Below are positions 13,209 through 52,798 of a DNA stretch of 64,000 nt, piece by piece. Position 1 is the stretch's first letter, and each line of letters begins with the position of its first letter. The translations under genes and the position numbers were made by a program. The DNA comes from Escherichia coli (lineage in GTDB: Bacteria > Pseudomonadota > Gammaproteobacteria > Enterobacterales > Enterobacteriaceae): NCBI RefSeq assembly GCF_001677475.2, contig NZ_CP015229.1, one strand, 5' to 3'. The notes under the pieces were generated by a model that ran no database searches, was not told the DNA's origin, and saw only the letters and a list, made by a program, of their open reading frames with translations.

Positions 13209-13928
13209 TTATAACTTACCCAGTTTAGTGCGTAACCGTTTAATGGCCTGGCTGTGTAACTGACTGACCCGCGATTCCCCGACCTCCAGCACCGCGCCAA
13301 TCTCTTTGAGATTCAGCTCTTCCTGGTAATAGAGGGTTAATACCAGTTTTTCGCGCTCCGGCAACGTTTCGATGGCTTCCATCACCCGCTGGCGCAGATT
13401 ACTGTCCAGCAGTTGTTGTAGCGGGTTTTCTCGCTGATGATCATCAGTAACCAGTTCGATGCTATCGCCGTGCTCTTCGCGCCACTCATCGTAGGAGAAG
13501 AGCTGGCTGTTATTGGTGTCGAGCAACATTTGGCGATAATCGGCAATATCGATCCCTAAACGTTCCGCTACCTCAGCTTCCGTGGCGTTGCGGCCAAGTT
13601 CCTGCTCCAGTTGCCCTATTGCCTGTGCCACTTCACGCGCGTTGCGTCGCACGCTGCGCGGCACCCAGTCACGGCTGCGAAGTTCATCCAGCATAGCGCC
13701 ACGGATACGCTGCACTGCGTAAGTTGTAAATGCCGTTCCTTGTAGGGCGTCATAGCGTTCGACGGCATTAAGTAACCCAATGCCGCCCGCCTGTAGCAGA
13801 TCGTCAAGTTCCACGCTCGCGGGCAGTCGAACCTGCAGGCGCAATGCTTCGTGACGCACCAGCGGGACATAACGCTGCCATAGCGAGTGTTTATCCATTA
13901 CACCTTCAGCGGTATAGAGTGAATTCAC
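13209..13928 (-). CDS. fliA: flagellar sigma factor sigma-28 (FliA)
   Basis: 239 aa sigma-70 family ORF in fliAZY arrangement. Confidence 0.95.
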   Translation of the reverse strand: MNSLYTAEGVMDKHSLWQRYVPLVRHEALRLQVRLPASVELDDLLQAGGIGLLNAVERYDALQGTAFTTYAVQRIRGAMLDELRSRDWVPRSVRRNAREVAQAIGQLEQELGRNATEAEVAERLGIDIADYRQMLLDTNNSQLFSYDEWREEHGDSIELVTDDHQRENPLQQLLDSNLRQRVMEAIETLPEREKLVLTLYYQEELNLKEIGAVLEVGESRVSQLHSQAIKRLRTKLGKL

Positions 13929-14046
13929 GATAAACAGCCCTGCGTTATATGAGTTATCGGCATGATTATCCGTTTCTGTAGAGGATTTAATCGGATGAAT
14001 AGTGGGTGAAATGGGGGGTTATTTGGGGGTTACCGGTAAATTGCGG

Positions 14047-14074
14047 ACAGAAAAAACCCCGCCGGTGGCGGGGG
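14047..14074 (-). terminator. rho-independent terminator downstream of fliC
   Basis: Minus strand ccccgccaccggcgggg hairpin followed by tttttt. Confidence 0.7.
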
Positions 14075-25050: not shown

Positions 25051-25863
25051 CTAGACACTTCCGAGCCGTTGATAATACTGGTTTTCATATTCTGTCGGTG
25101 ACATCTGATCGCTGGAACCATGCCGACGCTTACTGTTATAAAACATTTCGATGTAATCAAAAATATCGCTGCGGGCTTCTTCCCGCGTTCCGTAGATCTT
25201 TTTCTTTATCCGTTCGCGTTTCAACAACTGGAAAAAGCTTTCTGCAACCGCATTATCATGGCAGTTACCGCGACGGCTCATGCTGCCCTCCAGGCCGTGT
25301 GATTTCAGGAACGACTGCCACTCATGGCTTGTGTACTGACTGCCCTGATCCGAATGAACCAGCACCTGTTTTTGGGGATTACGGCGCCATACAGCCATCA
25401 GCAGTGCGTTCAGGACAATGTCCTTTGTCATCCGGGATTGCATGGACCAGCCGATAATTTTGCGTGAGAACAGATCAACAACCACGGCAAGATACAGCCA
25501 GCCTTCGTGGGTCCTGATGTAGGTTATGTCCGTTACCCAACGCTTATCCGGAGCATCCGGATTGAACTGTCGCTGGAGCCTGTTGGGCGACACGATACTG
25601 GCCTCGCCTTTACGTGCCCGCGGGCTCCGGTATCCGACCTGAGCCTTTATCCCGACACGTTTCATCAGTCGCCAGACTCTGTTCACTCCGCACTGTTGCC
25701 CGCTGTCCCGCAGATCCAGATGGATTTTGCGATAACCATAGACGCATCCCGATTCCAGCCAGAACTGTTTAATCTGCCCTGTCAGCCTCAGGTCTGCCTG
25801 ATGGCGTTGTGAATGCGGCTGCTGAAGCCAGGCGTAAAAACCACTGGGATGAACATCCAGCAC
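25051..25863 (-). CDS. IS3-family transposase OrfB (DDE catalytic domain; expressed as OrfAB fusion)
   Basis: ORF with DDE integrase-core motifs (KRWVTDITYIRT, LVHSDQGSQYTS, CHDNAVAESFF). Confidence 0.85.
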   Translation of the reverse strand: MLDVHPSGFYAWLQQPHSQRHQADLRLTGQIKQFWLESGCVYGYRKIHLDLRDSGQQCGVNRVWRLMKRVGIKAQVGYRSPRARKGEASIVSPNRLQRQFNPDAPDKRWVTDITYIRTHEGWLYLAVVVDLFSRKIIGWSMQSRMTKDIVLNALLMAVWRRNPQKQVLVHSDQGSQYTSHEWQSFLKSHGLEGSMSRRGNCHDNAVAESFFQLLKRERIKKKIYGTREEARSDIFDYIEMFYNSKRRHGSSDQMSPTEYENQYYQRLGSV

Positions 25864-25919
25864 CCGACAGAGCAGGCGAACAGGCCAGCAACAGGTGTTG
25901 TCACGGATAAAGGCGTACC

Positions 25920-26204
25920 TCAGTCGGACAGCTTTGCGAAGTACGCCGCGGCTTTTTTTAATATGTCCCGTTCGTCGGTAACCCGCTTCAGCTCTTTCTG
26001 GAGACGGCGGATCTCGGCCTGAGCATCTGACTGTTCTTTATTAGCGGAAGAATCCGGACCGTACTTCTTTATCCAGGCGTAAAGGCTGTGGGTGGTGATA
26101 TCGAGACGTGTTGCAACGCTGGCAACAGAATAACCGCGATCAACAACCTGTTTGACTGCTTCAATTTTAAACTCTTCGGGATAACGCTTACCGCTCATGG
26201 GCAC
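25920..26204 (-). CDS. IS3-family transposase OrfA (HTH)
   Basis: 94 aa ORF with HTH and leucine-zipper-like C-terminus ending at the frameshift site. Confidence 0.85.
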   Translation of the reverse strand: MPMSGKRYPEEFKIEAVKQVVDRGYSVASVATRLDITTHSLYAWIKKYGPDSSANKEQSDAQAEIRRLQKELKRVTDERDILKKAAAYFAKLSD

Positions 26205-26427: not shown

Positions 26428-27018
26428 ATGTGTGGACGTTTTGCACAAGCCCAAACCCGTGAAGAATACCTGGCATACCTGGCCGATGAGGCTGATCGCG
26501 ATATCGCATACGACCCGGAGCCTATTGGCCGGTACAACGTGGCGCCCGGTACCAAAGTTCTGCTCCTGAACGAACGCGACGAGCAGCTGCACCTCGATCC
26601 GGTTCTGTGGTCGTACGCGCCCGGGTGGTGGGATAAGCAGCCGCTGATTAACGCGCGCGTCGAGACGGCGGCCACTAGCCGCATGTTCAAACCTCTCTGG
26701 CAGCATGGCCGGGCGATCTGTTTTGCAGATGGGTGGTTCGAATGGAAGAAGGAAGGCGAAAAGAAACAGCCCTACTTCATTATCAACCCGGTCACTGGTA
26801 AGCCGGTCTCGGGTAATAACAAAGGCAGTATGTTGCTCATCTGGCGACCATTCCCGCGGGCAAACTGCCACTTCGCAACAGTGGAGAGGGATGAGTTGAT
26901 GACATTCGGAGCGAAACTTCTCGCCCGGTGGGAGGCCGCATATGGATTAAAGTACACCTCTGGTAATCCATGTATAATTAGATACCAGAGGAGCTTTGAA
27001 CCAAAAAAATATTATTAA
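26428..27018 (+). pseudogene. truncated divergent second copy of SRAP/yedK (only N-terminal ~115 codons are YedK-like)
   Basis: MCGRFAQAQTREEYLAYLADEADRDIAYDPEPIGRYNVAPGTKVLLL... parallels yedK to KKQPYF, then unrelated sequence; nucleotide level clearly diverged from yedK; upstream leader also yedK-like. Confidence 0.7.
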
Positions 27019-27812
27019 TTTCTATGTCTATAGGAGCCTCCAAGTCTAAATCCAAAAGTATATCTTTTAATATTATCAAACAAAAAAGCCTGCTCGTTAT
27101 TAAATATATTCAATTGAGACAGCTTTTCCATGAATGTTTTTGTCTCATCCATAAACTTCTCTGCAAATGAAGGATGTTTTAGCGCTTCAAAGAGTGTTGC
27201 GGAAAAATTTGTTTTTGCAAACATAGAGGCGCTTTGTAATTTATTTTGCCACTTAACTAAATAGTCATCACCTTCATTGTTTAATATTTCTTGGCTTGGC
27301 AGAACCAGTGCTGTTCCATGTGCTATAGCGTTCCGAAGGTGGAACATAGCAGTGAACGCATTTTTATCGGACATCATATCTTCAACCTTCAAGCCAGTAT
27401 AATCTTTAATCGCCTTTTTAAGATTATCCCAGCTCCCATTTGCTTCTAACTCTATATGCAAATTGAAAATCTTGTTATACGATCGAAAAATAGTTCTTGC
27501 GTTTTCTTTATTTGGTTCCGTTGCTGCAAGTTCCCCCATTGCATGGTGATCTTTCGATACAGCAGCGGTGAAAACCTGCCTCAAAATACCTTCAACAATC
27601 GCAGCATTCAGACTTATTAACGTGAGATTTCTGAATATGTTCTCATCTTTTAAAACTATTGTTTCTTTTGGGTTGCCATAGCGATCAAGTTGATCATAAT
27701 CCTTGTCTATTGCACCATTTTTAATCTTAATCGCAATTTCTTCGTATTGCTGAAGTAAATAAACATTAGTATTAAATATGTTAAATGAAGTTATCCTCGG
27801 AACAATTTCCAT
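27015..27812 (-). CDS. hypothetical protein with Rx4H (HEPN-type) motif; candidate abortive-infection/toxin-like RNase
   Basis: AT-rich ORF; internal ATG at 27812 (MEIVPR...) has a GAGGGG RBS, the ORF-track start at 27833 does not; motif FHLRNAIAHG fits the HEPN R-x4-6-H signature; no other domain recognised. Confidence 0.55.
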   Translation of the reverse strand: MEIVPRITSFNIFNTNVYLLQQYEEIAIKIKNGAIDKDYDQLDRYGNPKETIVLKDENIFRNLTLISLNAAIVEGILRQVFTAAVSKDHHAMGELAATEPNKENARTIFRSYNKIFNLHIELEANGSWDNLKKAIKDYTGLKVEDMMSDKNAFTAMFHLRNAIAHGTALVLPSQEILNNEGDDYLVKWQNKLQSASMFAKTNFSATLFEALKHPSFAEKFMDETKTFMEKLSQLNIFNNEQAFLFDNIKRYTFGFRLGGSYRHRN

Positions 27813-28015
27813 TGTCACACCCCTCGATTTCATTAAATCCTGATATGAGAAGCTATGGTATCAACAAATGTGAAAAAATCTAGTTAGAACCCAGAAAAAT
27901 GCTTAATAGGCCATTTAAGCAACGTCTTAATACTTATCGAATACTTGGAGATGTAGCAGAACCCCGGAGGTATTAAGCGGAGAATTCTACGCGCTATGCG
28001 TGCGACATGAGGAGG

Positions 28016-28228
28016 TTAAGCAATCATTCCGAAATGCTTCATCGCTTGCTCGATGAAAGTAACGTAATTAACAGGGCATTCATACACTTTTGAGTCAGGA
28101 GAGATACGGTTCGGCGCCTTCTTCATCTTGAACCCATGCATGTGCTTAACATGAGCGATATGGCATGTCTTAACACTGACACCATGGTTAGCTTTGACGT
28201 ATTCCTGGATCTGCTTATAGGTAGCCAT
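28016..28228 (-). CDS. small Cys/His-rich hypothetical protein (70 aa), possible partner of the HEPN-motif gene
   Basis: Start MATYKQIQEYVK preceded by AAGGAG RBS; same strand and immediately upstream of 27015..27812. Confidence 0.5.
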   Translation of the reverse strand: MATYKQIQEYVKANHGVSVKTCHIAHVKHMHGFKMKKAPNRISPDSKVYECPVNYVTFIEQAMKHFGMIA

Positions 28229-28342
28229 GCACCTCTCCTTTTTCATCACGACTCAATATACATGACAGGAAGCGCAGTGATAGCCAGTTATGTTCTAACC
28301 TGAGATTTAACCCGCGATATACTTTCTGCAACGGAGGATCCC

Positions 28343-28591
28343 ATGGCAGAAAGAAATGATAAGCCGCCTAAACCGGTTGCTGTCAGTCGGAGAATAATCA
28401 AAGGGCTTAGTCAATGCGAGCGGTGCAAGAAAACAAGGCTGGAGTGCCGCCGCATAGCGATGTCAGACGGAACAAGAATCGTCGCCTGTTTTGATTGTAT
28501 GACCGCCAAAAGCATAACTGGTAAAAAGCAAAAAAAGCTCAAAGTGTTTGAAATTTTAACCGCCTTTGAATCATCTCGACGAAAGCACTAA
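28343..28591 (+). CDS. C4 zinc-finger protein (CxxC...CxxC), putative island regulator
   Basis: 82 aa ORF with GGAGGA RBS; CERCKK...CFDC motif. Confidence 0.55.
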   Translation: MAERNDKPPKPVAVSRRIIKGLSQCERCKKTRLECRRIAMSDGTRIVACFDCMTAKSITGKKQKKLKVFEILTAFESSRRKH

Positions 28592-28640: not shown

Positions 28641-28886
28641 ATGAGCGACATTATCAACCTGGTACCGAATAAATGGGTGACTGAGCAGAACCTGATCGCA
28701 GTCACCGGATTAAGGCCAGGAACCATTGAACGAGCCCGCCGCGAGTCATGGTTCGCCGGCCGCGAATATATGCATGTTTCACCCGATGGAAACCCAAAGC
28801 CAAACAGTGAATGCATGTACAACACAGAAGCCATTAATCACTGGATCGAACAGCAAGCATCAAAACAGCCGGGTGCTCATTCATGA
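28641..28886 (+). CDS. excisionase-like DNA-binding protein
   Basis: 81 aa ORF immediately upstream of the integrase, with RBS; the Xis-like assignment is by position and size only. Confidence 0.5.
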   Translation: MSDIINLVPNKWVTEQNLIAVTGLRPGTIERARRESWFAGREYMHVSPDGNPKPNSECMYNTEAINHWIEQQASKQPGAHS

Positions 28887-28931: not shown

Positions 28932-30233
28932 ATGGCTAAATCAGCATACCCAACAGGCGTTGAGAACCACGGAGGAACTCTCCGCATATGGTTCATCTAT
29001 AAAGGCAGCCGGGTTCGTGAAAGTCTCGGCGTGCCGGATACACCAAAAAACAGAAAGATCGCTGGCGAGCTACGCGCGTCGGTGTGCTTTTCGATTAAGA
29101 CCGGTAACTTCAATTATGCGGCCCAGTTTCCGGACTCACCTAATCTGAAAAGATTTGGCGTGGAGAGTAAGGAAATAACCGTGCTGGAACTAGCGAACAA
29201 GTGGCTTGAACTGAAGCGTATGGAGATCAGCACCAACGCGATGTCACGCTATGCATCTATAGCGCGCAACATGGTGCCCAGGATTGGTGGGGACAGGCTG
29301 GTATCTGCGGTAACGCAGGAAGATCTGCTGTTTATCAGGAAGGAATTGCTGACCGGTTATCACACGCTGAAAGTCGGGCAGAAAACGCCGGTTAAGGGCC
29401 GCTCAGTCAGAACGGTCAACAACTACATGAAGACCATGGGCGGGATGTTTAAGTTTGCCGCTGATAGCGGTTATGTACGGGTGAATCCGTTCACCGGGAT
29501 CGCCATGCTTAAGCGGTCACGATGCGAGTCTGACCCGCTGACGCGCGATGAGTTTGTCAGGTTGATTAACGCCTGCGCCCACCAGCAACTGAAAAACATG
29601 TGGTCTCTTGCCGTCTACACCGGCGTGCGCCACGGAGAACTTGTGTCGCTGGCCTGGGAAGATATCGACATGAAAGCGGGTACGATGATGATCCGCCGGA
29701 ACCACACGTTAACGAAGGAATTCACCCTTCCGAAAACAGAGGCCGGGACTGACCGTATCATCAACCTCATTCAGCCAGCGATCGACGTGCTGAAGAGCCA
29801 GGCCGAATTAACACGCCTGGGTAAGCAGTATCAGGTTGAGGTGAAACTGCGCGAGTATGGCCGAACCGATGTGCATCCGTGCACGTTCGTGTTCAACCCG
29901 CAGATCGCTTCGCGTAACAGCCGTGCCGGGCATCATTACGCAGTGGGGTCGATCAACCAGTCATGGGAGGCAGCAATGCGGCGCGCCGGGATTCGCTATC
30001 GCAGAGCATACCAGTCCCGACACACGTATGCATGCTGGTCGTTGGCTGCCGGTGCCAACCCGAACTTCATCGCGAAGCAAATGGGCCACACCGACGCGCA
30101 AATGGTTTACCGGGTGTACGGATCCTGGATGGCTGAAAATAACCAGGACCAGGTACTCATCCTCAACCAGAAATTGAGTGAGTTTGCCCCATCCATGCCC
30201 CACGCCGTGGGAACGGATGGTTATTATTTATAA
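28932..30233 (+). CDS. site-specific tyrosine recombinase (phage-type integrase), intact
   Basis: 433 aa ORF with AGGAGG RBS; C-terminal catalytic region (RHTYACW..., GHTDAQMVYRVYG). Confidence 0.9.
   Translation: MAKSAYPTGVENHGGTLRIWFIYKGSRVRESLGVPDTPKNRKIAGELRASVCFSIKTGNFNYAAQFPDSPNLKRFGVESKEITVLELANKWLELKRMEISTNAMSRYASIARNMVPRIGGDRLVSAVTQEDLLFIRKELLTGYHTLKVGQKTPVKGRSVRTVNNYMKTMGGMFKFAADSGYVRVNPFTGIAMLKRSRCESDPLTRDEFVRLINACAHQQLKNMWSLAVYTGVRHGELVSLAWEDIDMKAGTMMIRRNHTLTKEFTLPKTEAGTDRIINLIQPAIDVLKSQAELTRLGKQYQVEVKLREYGRTDVHPCTFVFNPQIASRNSRAGHHYAVGSINQSWEAAMRRAGIRYRRAYQSRHTYACWSLAAGANPNFIAKQMGHTDAQMVYRVYGSWMAENNQDQVLILNQKLSEFAPSMPHAVGTDGYYL
30165..30205. repeat. 41-bp direct repeat, right copy (within integrase 3' end)
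   Basis: Identical to 24904..24944. Confidence 0.85.
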
Positions 30234-30253: not shown

Positions 30254-30568
30254 CTAAACTTGCATGCCCATCACTTCCTGATACGCCGCCACCAGCTTAT
30301 TACGCACCTGAATCCCCATTTGCATAGAAACTGAGGCTTTTTGCATATCGGTCATCACATCGTTTAACGCCACGCCGGGTTCACCGAGAGTGAATTTTTC
30401 TGCCTGCGTGCGGGCGGCTGTTTGTGTATCGCTTATGCGATCGAGCGCGGCGTGCAGCTGCCCGGCAAAACTAATGGTCGGTTGCGGCAGTGATTCCTGC
30501 GCACGCGCACTCATCGCCGTAGCCTGTAACTGGCTGATAACCCCTTCAATCCCCTGTATCGCTGACAT
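30254..30568 (-). CDS. fliE: flagellar hook-basal body protein FliE
   Basis: Matches recalled FliE from [16 protein letters not shown]-terminus here is VMGMQV. Confidence 0.93.
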
Positions 30569-30782
30569 TTTCATCTCCCGGATAATTTCTGGTAGCAAAG
30601 CCTACCAGTAAGTCAATAAGACAAAGGCGCTAAATAGCAACAAAAAAACGGGTTTATTGGCGGATAAAAAAAAACGAAAGCACAAATAATGGGAGCGTCA
30701 ATTTTTCGAGTTTGCTGACCCGGGAGTGAGTCTTGTTCCACTTTGCCAATAACGCCGTCCATAATCAGCCACGAGGTGCGCG

Positions 30783-34107
<3,325 letters not shown>

Positions 34108-40447: not shown

Positions 40448-41233
40448 ATGATGCAGGTGACAAGCGATCAATGGCTTTCCTGGCTAAGTCTGTACTTCTG
40501 GCCGTTACTGCGCGTGCTGGCGCTCATTTCTACCGCGCCAATTCTGAGCGAACGCAGCGTGCCGAAACGGGTAAAACTGGGTCTGGCAATGATGATCACG
40601 TTCGCCATTGCCCCATCATTACCTGCCAACGATGTTCCTGTTTTTTCGTTCTTTGCTCTGTGGCTGGCCGTGCAGCAGATCCTGATCGGCATTGCGCTTG
40701 GTTTTACCATGCAATTTGCCTTTGCCGCTGTGCGAACCGCTGGCGAAATTATCGGTCTGCAAATGGGGCTGTCATTTGCGACATTTGTCGATCCGGCCAG
40801 CCATCTTAATATGCCCGTTTTAGCGCGTATCATGGATATGCTGGCGTTACTGCTGTTCCTGACATTTAACGGTCATTTATGGTTGATTTCACTGCTGGTC
40901 GATACCTTTCACACCCTGCCGATTGGTGGCGAACCGTTGAACAGCAATGCGTTTCTGGCACTCACCAAAGCAGGGAGTTTGATTTTCCTTAACGGGCTGA
41001 TGCTGGCGTTACCGCTCATTACTCTGCTGCTGACACTGAATCTGGCATTAGGTTTACTTAATCGTATGGCCCCGCAATTATCCATTTTTGTTATTGGATT
41101 TCCATTAACTCTGACTGTCGGCATCTCTTTAATGGCGGCATTAATGCCGTTAATTGCGCCTTTTTGCGAACATTTATTCAGTGAAATTTTTAATTTGCTG
41201 GCGGATATTATTAGTGAATTGCCATTAATATAA
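40448..41233 (+). CDS. fliR: flagellar export apparatus protein FliR
   Basis: 261 aa. Confidence 0.95.
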
Positions 41234-41522
41234 TTCCGTAACGTTTATCATGTTATCCTAAGGATTATCCGAAAAATAATACCTGCGAACATCTTCCAGG
41301 ATACTCCTGTGGCGAAATATTTGTTTTAAGCTCACTCACATATCGCAACATTTACTTTACTTTAAGACAATTCCAGGCAAATTATACAACACTTTACGGG
41401 ATAGTAAGTCCGCCTGAAAAATCGCGAGAGTGGCGCATTAGGTGACCCATGTTGTTCCGTTTAGTCATGATGAAATATTCAGGTAAGGGGAATTATCGTT
41501 ACGCATTGAGTGAGGGTATGCC

Positions 41523-42146
41523 ATGTCAACGATTATTATGGATTTATGTAGTTACACCCGACTAGGTTTAACCGGGTATCTGTTGAGTAGAGGGGTTAAA
41601 AAAAGAGAAATCAACGACATTGAAACCGTTGATGACCTTGCCATAGCTTGTGATTCACAGCGCCCTTCAGTGGTGTTTATTAATGAGGACTGTTTCATCC
41701 ACGATGCTTCTAACAGTCAGCGTATCAAGCTCATCATTAATCAACATCCCAATACGTTATTTATCGTTTTTATGGCAATTGCCAATGTTCATTTTGATGA
41801 ATATCTATTGGTCAGGAAAAATTTATTGATCAGTTCTAAATCGATCAAACCGGAATCTCTCGACGATATCCTTGGCGATATTCTGAAAAAAGAGACAACG
41901 GTAACCTCGTTTTTAAATATGCCGACGTTATCATTGAGCCGAACCGAATCGAGTATGTTGCGAATGTGGATGGCAGGTCAGGGAACAATTCAAATCTCCG
42001 ACCAAATGAATATCAAAGCCAAGACCGTTTCATCGCATAAAGGTAATATTAAACGTAAGATCAAAACGCATAATAAACAGGTTATCTACCATGTCGTCCG
42101 ACTGACGGATAATGTAACTAATGGTATTTTTGTCAACATGCGCTAA
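41523..42146 (+). CDS. rcsA: colanic acid capsule regulator RcsA (LuxR-type)
   Basis: 207 aa AT-rich ORF; K-12 synteny. Confidence 0.93.
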
Positions 42147-50673: not shown

Positions 50674-51057
50674 TTATTCATAGCGTCTGCTACGTGCGGG
50701 ACGAGGTCGGGTGTACCAGGCAATGCTGCCTAACAATGCCCCGACCAGAGCCATAAATAAAAATCCGACCAGTGCCCCTAACCACTTTCCCGCGGTAGAT
50801 CCTAAATCGCTTTCAAATCCCGACACCGGGGCATCGGGGATCCGGCTCATCACCCAGATGTAACGCGCCATTGCCCAGACGAAATAGCCACACCATGTAT
50901 AGAAAGCCCACAAAGCCAATTTGCCGCCAGGGCTGCGAGAGAGTCTCTCTTCCATCTTTGTCGAACCGTATTCCATTTTGAGATAACCCGGAAAATTCAG
51001 ACTTAGTACTATTATGTGATAAAAGTCACATTTTTCCACATTGGATGAGCCAGTCAA
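50674..51057 (-). CDS. yedR: inner membrane protein YedR
   Basis: ORF with two TM helices; start codon uncertain. Confidence 0.75.
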   Translation of the reverse strand: MTGSSNVEKCDFYHIIVLSLNFPGYLKMEYGSTKMEERLSRSPGGKLALWAFYTWCGYFVWAMARYIWVMSRIPDAPVSGFESDLGSTAGKWLGALVGFLFMALVGALLGSIAWYTRPRPARSRRYE

Positions 51058-51604
51058 GACTCACTCATTTTTTGAACAAATAGATAATTTTTGCGCAACG
51101 GCAGTGAATACAGGAAAAATCGTTTTGAGTGATTTTATTTATCTTTGATATCAGCTTTATTAATTCATTCAATCAATATATTAGCACTGATTACAATTAT
51201 ACCTTTTTATTATTCTGTGTCATGATGCCTCCGTTATTAGCCTTTTATCGTCTTGTTTATATTTTTAGGGCCGGCATGATGCCGGCTTTTTTTTATGCCT
51301 TCATTAATGTGCGCGAGATCACACCAGCCGTTTGGCGCAACAATCATTGATACTCCCTATCTTTCCGCTCAACGCATAACACATTGATATACAATTATAG
51401 TTTTCATGAATACTTATATTTAGAACTCATAATCCTGAATTATATTAAATAGATTAGAAACATTTTGAAATCTTTTAAATACATTTGTTACATGTAATCT
51501 TTAAAATAAAATGAACTTCATAGAATAGTATCCAAATGTGCTTTTTTTGGATAACGGCACTTATTGATATATTCATGAAGATTATAATCACAAGGGAATA
51601 CATA

Positions 51605-52798
51605 ATGAAAAGAAAAGTTCTGGCAATGCTGGTCCCGGCGTTATTAGTTGCTGGCGCAGCAAATGCGGCTGAAGTCTATAATAAAGATGGTAATAAACTG
51701 GATTTCTACGGAAAAGTAGCAGGTCTGCACTACTTCTCTGACAACTCGGGCGCTGATGGCGATATGTCATATGCCCGTATCGGTTTCAAAGGCGAAACAC
51801 AAATCGCTGACCAGTTCACTGGTTACGGTCAGTGGGAATACAACCTACAAGCAAATGGCACAGAAGGCGATGGAGATAACTCTGCTACCCGTCTGGCATT
51901 CGCAGGTTTAGGTTTTGGTCAGAATGGTACTTTCGATTATGGTCGTAACTACGGTGTCGTATATGACATCGAAGCATGGACCGATATGCTGCCAGAATTT
52001 GGTGGCGATACCTACGCGGGTGCCGACAACTTCATGAACGGTCGTACCAACGGTGTTGCAACCTACCGTAACAATGGCTTCTTTGGTCAGGTTGATGGCT
52101 TGAACTTTGCTTTGCAATATCAGGGTAATAATGAAAGTGGTGGACCATTCGGGCAGGAAGGTTCCGGTAGTGGTGATGGCCGTAGCCTTTCCAAAGAAAA
52201 TGGTGATGGTTTCGGTATGTCAACATCCTACGACTTCGACTTCGGTTTAAGTCTGGGTGCTGCATATTCAAACTCTGATCGTTCAGATCGTCAGGTTGGA
52301 GTTGGTTTAAATGATCGTAACCATAGCAACAGAAATGCTGGTGGTGAAACCGCTGAAGCATGGACTGTTGGTGCAAAATATGATGCTAATAATGTGTATT
52401 TAGCAGCTATGTACGCTGAAACTCGCAATATGACCCCATATGGTGGTGGCGAGTTTGATAATGGTGAATCAAGATCAGCCATCGCTAACAAAACCCAAAA
52501 CTTTGAAGTTGTTGCTCAGTATCAGTTCGACTTCGGTCTGCGCCCGTCCATCGCTTACTTGCAATCTAAAGGTAAGGATTTAGGCGGTTGGGCTCATGAC
52601 GGTAATGGCGATCCGCGTTACACCAACAAAGATCTGGTTAAATATGTTGAAGTCGGTGCGACCTACTACTTCAACAAAAATATGTCCACCTACGTTGATT
52701 ACAAAATCAACCTGCTGGACAACGATGATGACTTCTACGAAGCAAACGGCATCGCTACCGATGACATCGTTGCTGTGGGCTTAGTCTACCAGTTCTAA
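51605..52798 (+). CDS. OmpC/OmpF-family outer-membrane porin (yedS/ompN-like), apparently intact
   Basis: Signal peptide [21 protein letters not shown], beta-barrel porin sequence, C-terminal aromatic YQF. Confidence 0.88.

Follow-up and report, generated by a model that had tools for sequence, protein, structure and literature searches.

A solo HEPN-domain gene in a prophage remnant beside fliE of Escherichia coli: a candidate abortive-infection nuclease independent of its small neighbour

What is the role of a 265-aa protein carrying the sequence FHLRNAIAHG, whose gene lies next to the integrase and excisionase genes (int and xis) of a prophage remnant in Escherichia coli, and does it act together with the 70-aa protein encoded beside it? 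The question arises from a stretch of 64,000 nucleotides of contig NZ_CP015229.1 (here called the window), in which an earlier note, made from the sequence without database searches, had described the two genes as a cassette consisting of a HEPN-motif protein and a small Cys/His-rich partner, possibly an undescribed defence or toxin module. The analysis presented here indicates, with high confidence, that the larger protein has the HEPN fold. Its gene (referred to as the HEPN gene) is a single-gene mobile-element accessory, or "moron", with an upstream region of its own, and the protein has no need of the small gene. By analogy with characterised systems a role in defence or abortive infection is the most plausible function.

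The HEPN gene is located at 27015..27812 on the minus strand and FHLRNAIAHG corresponds to residues 157–166 of its product. The longest open reading frame (ORF) reaches 27833 and would encode 272 aa, but the ATG at 27833 is not conserved among the homologues; the true start is the ATG at 27812, every homologue beginning at MEIV, and a ribosome-binding site (GAGGGG, 27825-27820) is found 7 nt ahead of this start codon. The codons for R160-N-A-I-A-H165, the predicted catalytic Rx4H motif, are situated at 27335-27318 on the minus strand (translation checked) and those of a second conserved motif on a long helix, N69-AAIVEGIL-R78, at 27579..27608 on the same strand.

The protein belongs to a rare family. 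Among 1.84 billion representatives, exhaustive searching with a profile revealed 54 members, nearly all of 200–280 aa, in Enterobacterales, Vibrio, Alteromonas and Acinetobacter, most of them named "hypothetical protein". A scan for related loci with a narrower alignment gave one genome locus and three viral loci, and tblastn of the protein against 50,697 phage records gave no hit. When 41 full-length members with identities down to 16% were aligned, E74, R160, N161, H165 and G166 proved invariant in all 41, with G75, R78, T167, P172, W188, F220 and G254 near-invariant, and two family motifs could be recognised, LNAAIxEGxLR and LRNxxAHGT. Conservation of the arginine and the histidine, which the earlier note had put forward as a check of its HEPN proposal, is thereby confirmed. 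The motif that had prompted the proposal is certainly present, but taken alone it is weak evidence, because Rx4-6H also occurs in 60% of composition-preserving shuffles of the protein (RNx3H in 2.6%); in a protein of this size and composition most shuffles thus contain it by chance, and its significance comes from the homology and the conservation.

The assignment to the HEPN superfamily is based on profile matches, the invariant residues, a confident structural model and structural neighbours annotated as HEPN, and the profile and structure searches proposed in the earlier note did match HEPN-annotated proteins. In Pfam, PF18735 (RiboL-PSP-HEPN) matches residues 59–169 of the query with an independent E-value (i-E) of 0.0018 and 18.7 bits. 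Across the 41 members the same profile gives E-values of 1e-3 or better for eight and of 0.1 or better for 22, the best being 1.2e-6, and 19 members fall short of 0.1; the family can at most be regarded as a divergent sister to PF18735 or an outlier of it. Among the defence models of PADLOC, RTasHEPN matches residues 128–174 of the 272-aa ORF (E 3.8e-8). The AlphaFold2 model (predicted local distance difference test score, pLDDT, 91.3; predicted template-modelling score, pTM, 0.87) is all-helical apart from a hairpin at residues 35–52, with a long helix at 57–98 and a poorly ordered N-terminus. A Foldseek search of AFDB50 returned 14 hits at E<=1e-3 with query-normalised TM-scores up to 0.83, comprising an identical E. 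coli "uncharacterized protein", other unannotated proteins and RiboL-PSP-, MAE_28990- and Apea-like HEPN proteins, and those of the significant hits that carry an informative annotation belong to HEPN families only (probability 1.00). The best-covered matches of the HEPN core among solved structures include 8xdj_A and 4nqf_B, both HEPN-MNT, and the 41-member profile run against the sequences of the Protein Data Bank (PDB) gave no chain at E<=10.

From the conserved residues both catalysis and a composite active site formed across a dimer are predicted. It could be argued that the protein has the HEPN fold without being an RNase, serving instead as a nucleotide or ligand binder or as a scaffold in which the arginine and histidine contribute to binding, since some HEPN proteins are non-catalytic. 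We regard this as improbable, given that R-N-x3-H-G together with an acidic residue is invariant over very divergent members, which, going by published accounts of HEPN nucleases, is the pattern of active HEPN families.

The possibility that the gene is a decaying, non-functional leftover of a dead prophage also has to be addressed, as the prophage has shrunk to about 4 kb plus an insertion sequence (IS) and contains a chimeric ORF that represents a deletion scar. The reading frame of the HEPN gene is, however, intact, every conserved motif has been kept, the ratio of non-synonymous to synonymous substitutions (dN/dS) lies between 0.046 and 0.15 when compared with the homologues of Citrobacter, Klebsiella and Pantoea, and an identical product is found in six other loci from several assemblies and metagenomes. 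The gene is real and under purifying selection, and decay is a scarcely credible explanation.

The second part of the question concerns the small ORF, located at 28016..28228 on the minus strand and belonging to the phrog_27283 family. Its own ribosome-binding site (AAGGAGAGG, 28240-28232) and the sequence C22-H-x2-H-x2-H-x-H with a distal C51 are present as first described. Both genes are AT-rich cargo beside xis and int (GC content 0.346 for the HEPN gene and 0.432 for the small ORF, compared with 0.541 for int and 0.492 for the whole window), in line with the foreign origin proposed earlier, but the earlier placing of the small ORF directly upstream needs correcting, as its stop codon is 203 nt from the HEPN start codon. 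The two genes occur together only in six loci (L006–L011), in which all three products are identical to those of the window. By tblastn against the loci first collected, and by inspection of the gene calls upstream of the HEPN gene in further loci, the small ORF was found only in these identical-product copies and at none of 22 other HEPN loci examined, among them those of Klebsiella aerogenes, Citrobacter, Pantoea, Serratia, Proteus, Vibrio, Acinetobacter and several metagenomes.

Comparisons at the DNA level gave the same picture. The segment 26787-27940, spanning a dam fragment, the HEPN gene and then 128 nt upstream of it, shows continuous 82% identity with a Klebsiella aerogenes prophage (L004) and a viral contig (L019), both lacking the small ORF. 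A second segment on the minus strand, 27987..28292, reaching from 64 nt upstream to 29 nt downstream of the small ORF, is 84–85% identical to L012, L014, L015 and L017, the identity ending at 27987 and 28292. The junction thus falls within 27941-27986, and since homology breaks between 27940 and 27987 the two genes belong to separate modules that abut, both of which include an upstream region of their own.

On these grounds it is very improbable that the genes form a two-gene module for defence or of the toxin-antitoxin type, with the 70-aa protein as antitoxin, inhibitor or regulator of the nuclease. In favour of such a module, the genes share a strand without a predicted terminator in between, six other loci with the element have kept both of them intact and with identical products, and there is a precedent in Tha and Ith, where a small gene beside int inhibits a prophage HEPN nuclease. 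Against this, the small ORF is missing from all 22 other HEPN loci and the HEPN gene from all six other small-ORF loci, the DNA homology breaks between the genes, a HEPN homologue in Vibrio is a single-gene integron cassette, and the small protein neither resembles Ith-1 nor has a conserved His cluster. The cassette of the earlier note was consequently rejected, as the pairing is not conserved and the DNA modules are separate. More generally, unrelated accessory genes are lined up one after another in the int-proximal slot of lambdoid prophages, and adjacency there does not amount to an operon.

The contexts of the homologues describe a gene that moves on its own. No neighbour was common to the contexts examined in Escherichia, Klebsiella, Citrobacter, Pantoea, Serratia, Proteus, Vibrio, Acinetobacter and metagenomes. 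In lambdoid prophages the HEPN gene is always located on the strand opposite to its neighbours and occupies three different accessory slots, the first next to int/xis (the window, L001 and L003–L005), the second between the replication gene P and the nin region (L002 and L034/L035) and the third between the antiterminator gene Q and the lysis genes (L036/L037). The Pantoea prophage L001 is, like the element in the window, integrated next to fliE. In Vibrio vulnificus (L022, 4857-5839) a homologue with 34% identity forms a single-gene cassette of a chromosomal integron, flanked by attC-like TAACAA...GCGTTA repeats; the array comprises about 17 cassettes, including ParE/Phd and acetyltransferase ones.

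Some of the neighbouring genes are of the defence type, namely GmrSD (L025), a BstA_C protein in the same prophage (L004/L005), HipA in an Acinetobacter island (L038) and the ParE/Phd cassettes of L022. In the Klebsiella aerogenes prophage L004/L005, whose HEPN gene is 88% identical, the BstA_C-domain protein is encoded at 13251-14180; BstA is named as an anti-phage system in the work on Tha (PMC11087260) and, with BstA_C and HEPN in one prophage, L004/L005 may carry two defence candidates. A different arrangement was observed in the metagenomic loci L026–L028, where the gene of a distant homologue (29% identity) is preceded, at a distance of about 390 nt, by one for an RNA 2'-phosphotransferase (Tpt1/KptA). 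In every case a gene for a 226-aa protein without Pfam hit comes 109 nt downstream of the homologue on the same strand; this may reflect a partner specific to the subfamily or a pairing of RNA damage and repair.

Prophages carry the gene, as does an integron array with many toxin-antitoxin cassettes, and this could also mean that the protein serves the mobile element, either as an addiction or stabilisation toxin or, as an RNase, by fine-tuning phage or host transcripts in the lysogen or upon induction. The gene has indeed outlasted extensive deletions in a remnant where int, xis and both repeat cores are preserved. Neither a gene nor an RNA that could act as antitoxin was detected, however. 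The region upstream of the HEPN gene contains no tandem repeats and its fold z-score is -0.55, giving no sign of an RNA antitoxin or structured leader, and Rfam gave no match at E<=1 in the HEPN region except a chance miRNA match. An addiction toxin without an antidote would kill its host, and antisense accessory positions of this kind are those occupied by characterised prophage defences. A service to the element is accordingly judged unlikely, yet worth keeping in mind.

The reading we favour, with moderate confidence, is that the HEPN protein is a solo latent RNase acting as a prophage-borne abortive-infection or phage-competition gene, a proposal built on analogy. It draws on the homology, the invariant catalytic residues, the single-gene mobility and two experimentally studied analogues, HepS and Tha. 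RNase activity, latency, trigger, RNA target and defence phenotype are all inferred, and they can be arranged as follows. Transcription of the gene would start in the upstream region that belongs to it and run antisense to the prophage operon around it, and the protein would hence be made in the lysogen. At rest it may form a latent oligomer in which two R160-N-x3-H165 motifs, facing each other across the HEPN dimer and aided by E74 and R78 on the long helix, would be held inactive. The inhibition would be lifted by something that the infecting phage produces, presumably a structural protein as for HepS and Tha, and the activated nuclease might then cut host RNA, either tRNA anticodon loops or rRNA and mRNA. 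Translation would stop and the infection abort, so that the clone and its prophage would be protected.

Solo prophage-encoded HEPN defence is already established by HepS and Tha, and the solo-HEPN families studied differ from one another in their triggers and in how self-harm is avoided. HepS is the solo HEPN protein of the Salmonella prophage Gifsy-1, a tetramer that responds to the tail-tip protein J and cuts tRNA anticodon loops (PMC13043305). Like the protein studied here, it is a single HEPN-domain protein with an Rx4H motif, encoded in an accessory slot of a lambdoid prophage of Enterobacteriaceae without a conserved partner gene, and L002 and L034 share its location just after the replication genes. 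The motif differs in position, R100-H105 in HepS compared with R160-H165 of 265 aa here, and the homologue set of the HepS study was limited to proteins of <=250 aa (PMC13043305). Similarity to the HepS structure (PDB 9OIK) was not detected, as no PDB chain reached E<=10 with the 41-member profile, the presence of 9OIK in the PDB copies used being unverified. In the LT2 Gifsy-1 record no HepS-like ORF was found.

Tha, a HEPN RNase of 301 aa from prophages of S. aureus, has its gene beside int, is triggered by minor tail proteins and is controlled by the antisense inhibitor Ith (PMC11087260). The similar size, the R-N-x3-H motif, the place next to int in temperate phages and the orientation antisense to neighbouring transcription are shared, whereas the HEPN domain is C-terminal in Tha and spans the whole protein here. 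Membership in the Tha family was rejected, an hhalign comparison with Tha-1 of phage 80alpha giving a probability of 1.6% over only 29 residues around the motif and BLASTP an E-value of 0.14. Homology to Ith was likewise rejected for the small ORF (hhalign probability 0.1% against Ith-1), and no Ith-like inhibitor is conserved beside the HEPN gene.

Other HEPN systems were compared in the same way. ApeA, DARNA and PD-T4-2 are, like the present candidate, single-gene HEPN abortive-infection nucleases. ApeA is larger than the 265-aa protein, and DARNA, with 456 aa, has an extra sensor domain, whereas the sole non-helical element here is the short beta-hairpin. Searches with PADLOC gave no match to these three, the presence of their models in the release being unchecked. 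ApeA and DARNA (PD-T7-3) are tRNA anticodon nucleases (bioRxiv 10.64898/2026.02.22.705581). The HEPN protein belongs to none of the HepS, Tha and ApeA families and is analogous to them. RiboL-PSP-HEPN (PF18735) is the best profile match and shares the R-N-x3-H-G signature; together with it the MAE_28990-like and Apea-like HEPN proteins are the nearest named relatives, each with a weak or outlying match. The HEPN-MNT systems (HepT/MntA, type II/VII) resemble it through 8xdj_A and 4nqf_B, but HepT is half the size, and no nucleotidyltransferase gene lies directly beside any member of the family, the nearest (NTP_transf_8 in L026) being four genes away and not conserved elsewhere. For defence-associated reverse transcriptases (DRT), no reverse-transcriptase Pfam neighbour was seen in any examined locus with gene calls, and for type III toxin-antitoxin systems (AbiF/ToxIN) neither a tandem-repeat array nor a structured RNA was found upstream of the gene. 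Esos, an anti-phage integron cassette of V. cholerae consisting of a HEPN-like protein only (bioRxiv 10.1101/2024.07.02.601686), could be related to the family.

Several observations weigh against the defence reading. A scan with the sigma-70 consensus found no promoter at threshold upstream of the HEPN gene, and a combined sigma-70 and terminator scan gave nothing on the minus strand upstream of either gene. The region 27813..27940 (minus strand) which travels with the gene does contain the ribosome-binding site and a candidate extended -10 box, TGaTACCAT at 27863..27855 (minus strand), read from conserved sequence only. Apart from the partial RTasHEPN match, the defence models of PADLOC-DB v2 (2023) gave nothing at E<=1, and the PF18735 match of the query itself (i-E 0.0018) is weak. 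A literature search gave no experimental study of toxicity, RNase activity or phage response for any member of the family. In this respect the family can be called undescribed as the earlier note had supposed, but not entirely so, as PF18735 weakly recognises some of its members and one NCBI homologue is already named "HEPN domain-containing protein". Finally, the carrying element is a 5-kb remnant, which leaves expression and present function in this strain in doubt.

A more far-reaching proposal, which we consider a rather long shot, is that the family represents an immune sensor-effector of the solo-HEPN type that has so far escaped recognition and follows a trigger logic of its own. The poorly ordered N-terminus, the beta-hairpin (residues 35–52) and a conserved C-terminal Y/F-x-F-G tail might capture a phage protein and thereby open the active site, and such a capture would explain why one gene suffices as the package carried by prophages, integrons and islands across Gammaproteobacteria. 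In a bolder variant still, the 70-aa protein, which resembles a helix-turn-helix protein, would have been recruited in this Escherichia lineage alone as a regulator or inhibitor of the nuclease, an independently evolved solution like that of Ith. With its clear catalytic residues and its occurrence as a single gene in prophages, an integron and islands, the family is a compact and rare test case.

The small ORF, for its part, is an independent and far more abundant single-gene prophage accessory and not a partner of the HEPN gene. It is real and under purifying selection (dN/dS 0.12). The family, phrog_27283, is without functional annotation. The small ORF has 43 homologue clusters, one of which, 83% identical, accounts for 548 indexed blocks of the contig collection. 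The six loci shown for this cluster all have the gene on its own in lambdoid prophages of the Enterobacter type, where it occupies the same slot as in the window, from int/xis to the early-left genes and on the opposite strand, without a HEPN gene downstream. An alignment of 23 homologues revealed that T3, Y4, K5, Q8, T21, C22, I24, A25, K28, N40, R41, C51 and P52 are invariant, among them both cysteines of the motif, while the His cluster is variable, for example H23 replaced by W and H29 by E, R or Y. The reading as a metal-binding, Cys/His-rich partner was therefore rejected, the histidines not being conserved and a search of the family against PDB sequences having given no significant hit; the protein is probably a small nucleic-acid-binding protein of the helix-turn-helix type. 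Members are abundant as solo antisense accessories at the int/xis-proximal slot in prophages of Enterobacter, Salmonella and Escherichia. Homologues extend to an Ectobacillus genome and to Synechococcus phages, and in Streptococcus phage YS162 (L029) the domain makes up the C-terminal 71 residues of a RumA-like methyltransferase.

The island in which the two genes are found adjoins fliE (30254..30598), followed by fliF (30783..32441). The int gene (28932..30233, plus strand) encodes a tyrosine integrase of 433 aa, the domains Arm-DNA-bind_2 and Phage_integrase being recorded on the gene at the same position in L006–L011, and xis (28641..28886, plus strand) matches phrog_539 (E 1.9e-37), with PF06806 on the same gene in L006–L011. 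Immediately before xis, on the int strand, an 82-aa ORF (28343..28591, plus strand) with two CxxC pairs encodes a zinc-ribbon-like protein, which had no match in PADLOC, PHROGs or NCBIfam and was restricted, among the loci compared at that stage, to the identical copies L006–L011. PADLOC likewise gave no match for the small ORF, xis or the chimeric ORF. The latter (26428..27018, plus strand, 196 aa) combines an SRAP/YedK-like N-terminus, residues 1–128 matching NF007413 and phrog_1599, with a C-terminal fragment of a phage Dam methylase, residues 102–170 matching phage N6A-methylase models; in blastn comparisons the dam fragment (26780-26941) aligns with dam of L003, L012 and L014. This ORF is the scar of an internal deletion that fused two prophage genes, and it is convergent with the HEPN gene, the two overlapping by 4 nt at the HEPN stop codon.

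The edges of the island are marked by a perfect 41-bp direct repeat resembling an att core, with a left copy at 24904..24944 (plus strand), at the left edge of the remnant and within a diverged duplicate of the int 3' end (24860-24990), and a right copy at 30165..30205 (plus strand), inside the 3' end of int itself. An IS3-family element on the minus strand (25051..26204 in ORF coordinates; orfA 25920-26204, orfB 25051-25863), assigned from the OrfA/OrfB-like ORF pair alone, sits between the chimeric ORF and a leucine-rich-repeat gene and is missing from the otherwise identical loci L006–L009, in which the spacing of the repeats is 4029 bp. As the repeats bound the island, the element is a prophage reduced to about 4 kb plus the IS, and the HEPN gene is cargo of this int/xis-bearing remnant of about 5.3 kb, which might still be excisable. 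A near-identity search of 5,426 complete E. coli genomes gave a short xis match only, and no copy of int above 87% identity across most of its length was found. The metagenome contig L010 contains an int–xis–70-aa–HEPN block with identical products next to other left neighbours (GH116, FKBP and alpha-2-macroglobulin genes), which places the block in more than one chromosomal background; a second copy of the repeat core was not found within that locus.

The window as a whole is an Escherichia-type chromosome, and the ORF sizes to the left of the island fit what we take to be the E. coli K-12 order fliD-fliS-fliT-amyA-yedD-yedE. The leucine-rich-repeat gene (23513-24631, minus strand, GC 0.356) encodes 372 aa, carries Pfam DUF5503 in related loci and presumably corresponds to an intact version of the yedN pseudogene region of K-12; its product may be similar to type III secretion effectors. 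Further AT-rich stretches (GC 0.37–0.45 compared with 0.49 for the window) were observed at 41001-42000, 51001-52000, 53001-57000 and 59001-61000, and these may represent other horizontally acquired islands.

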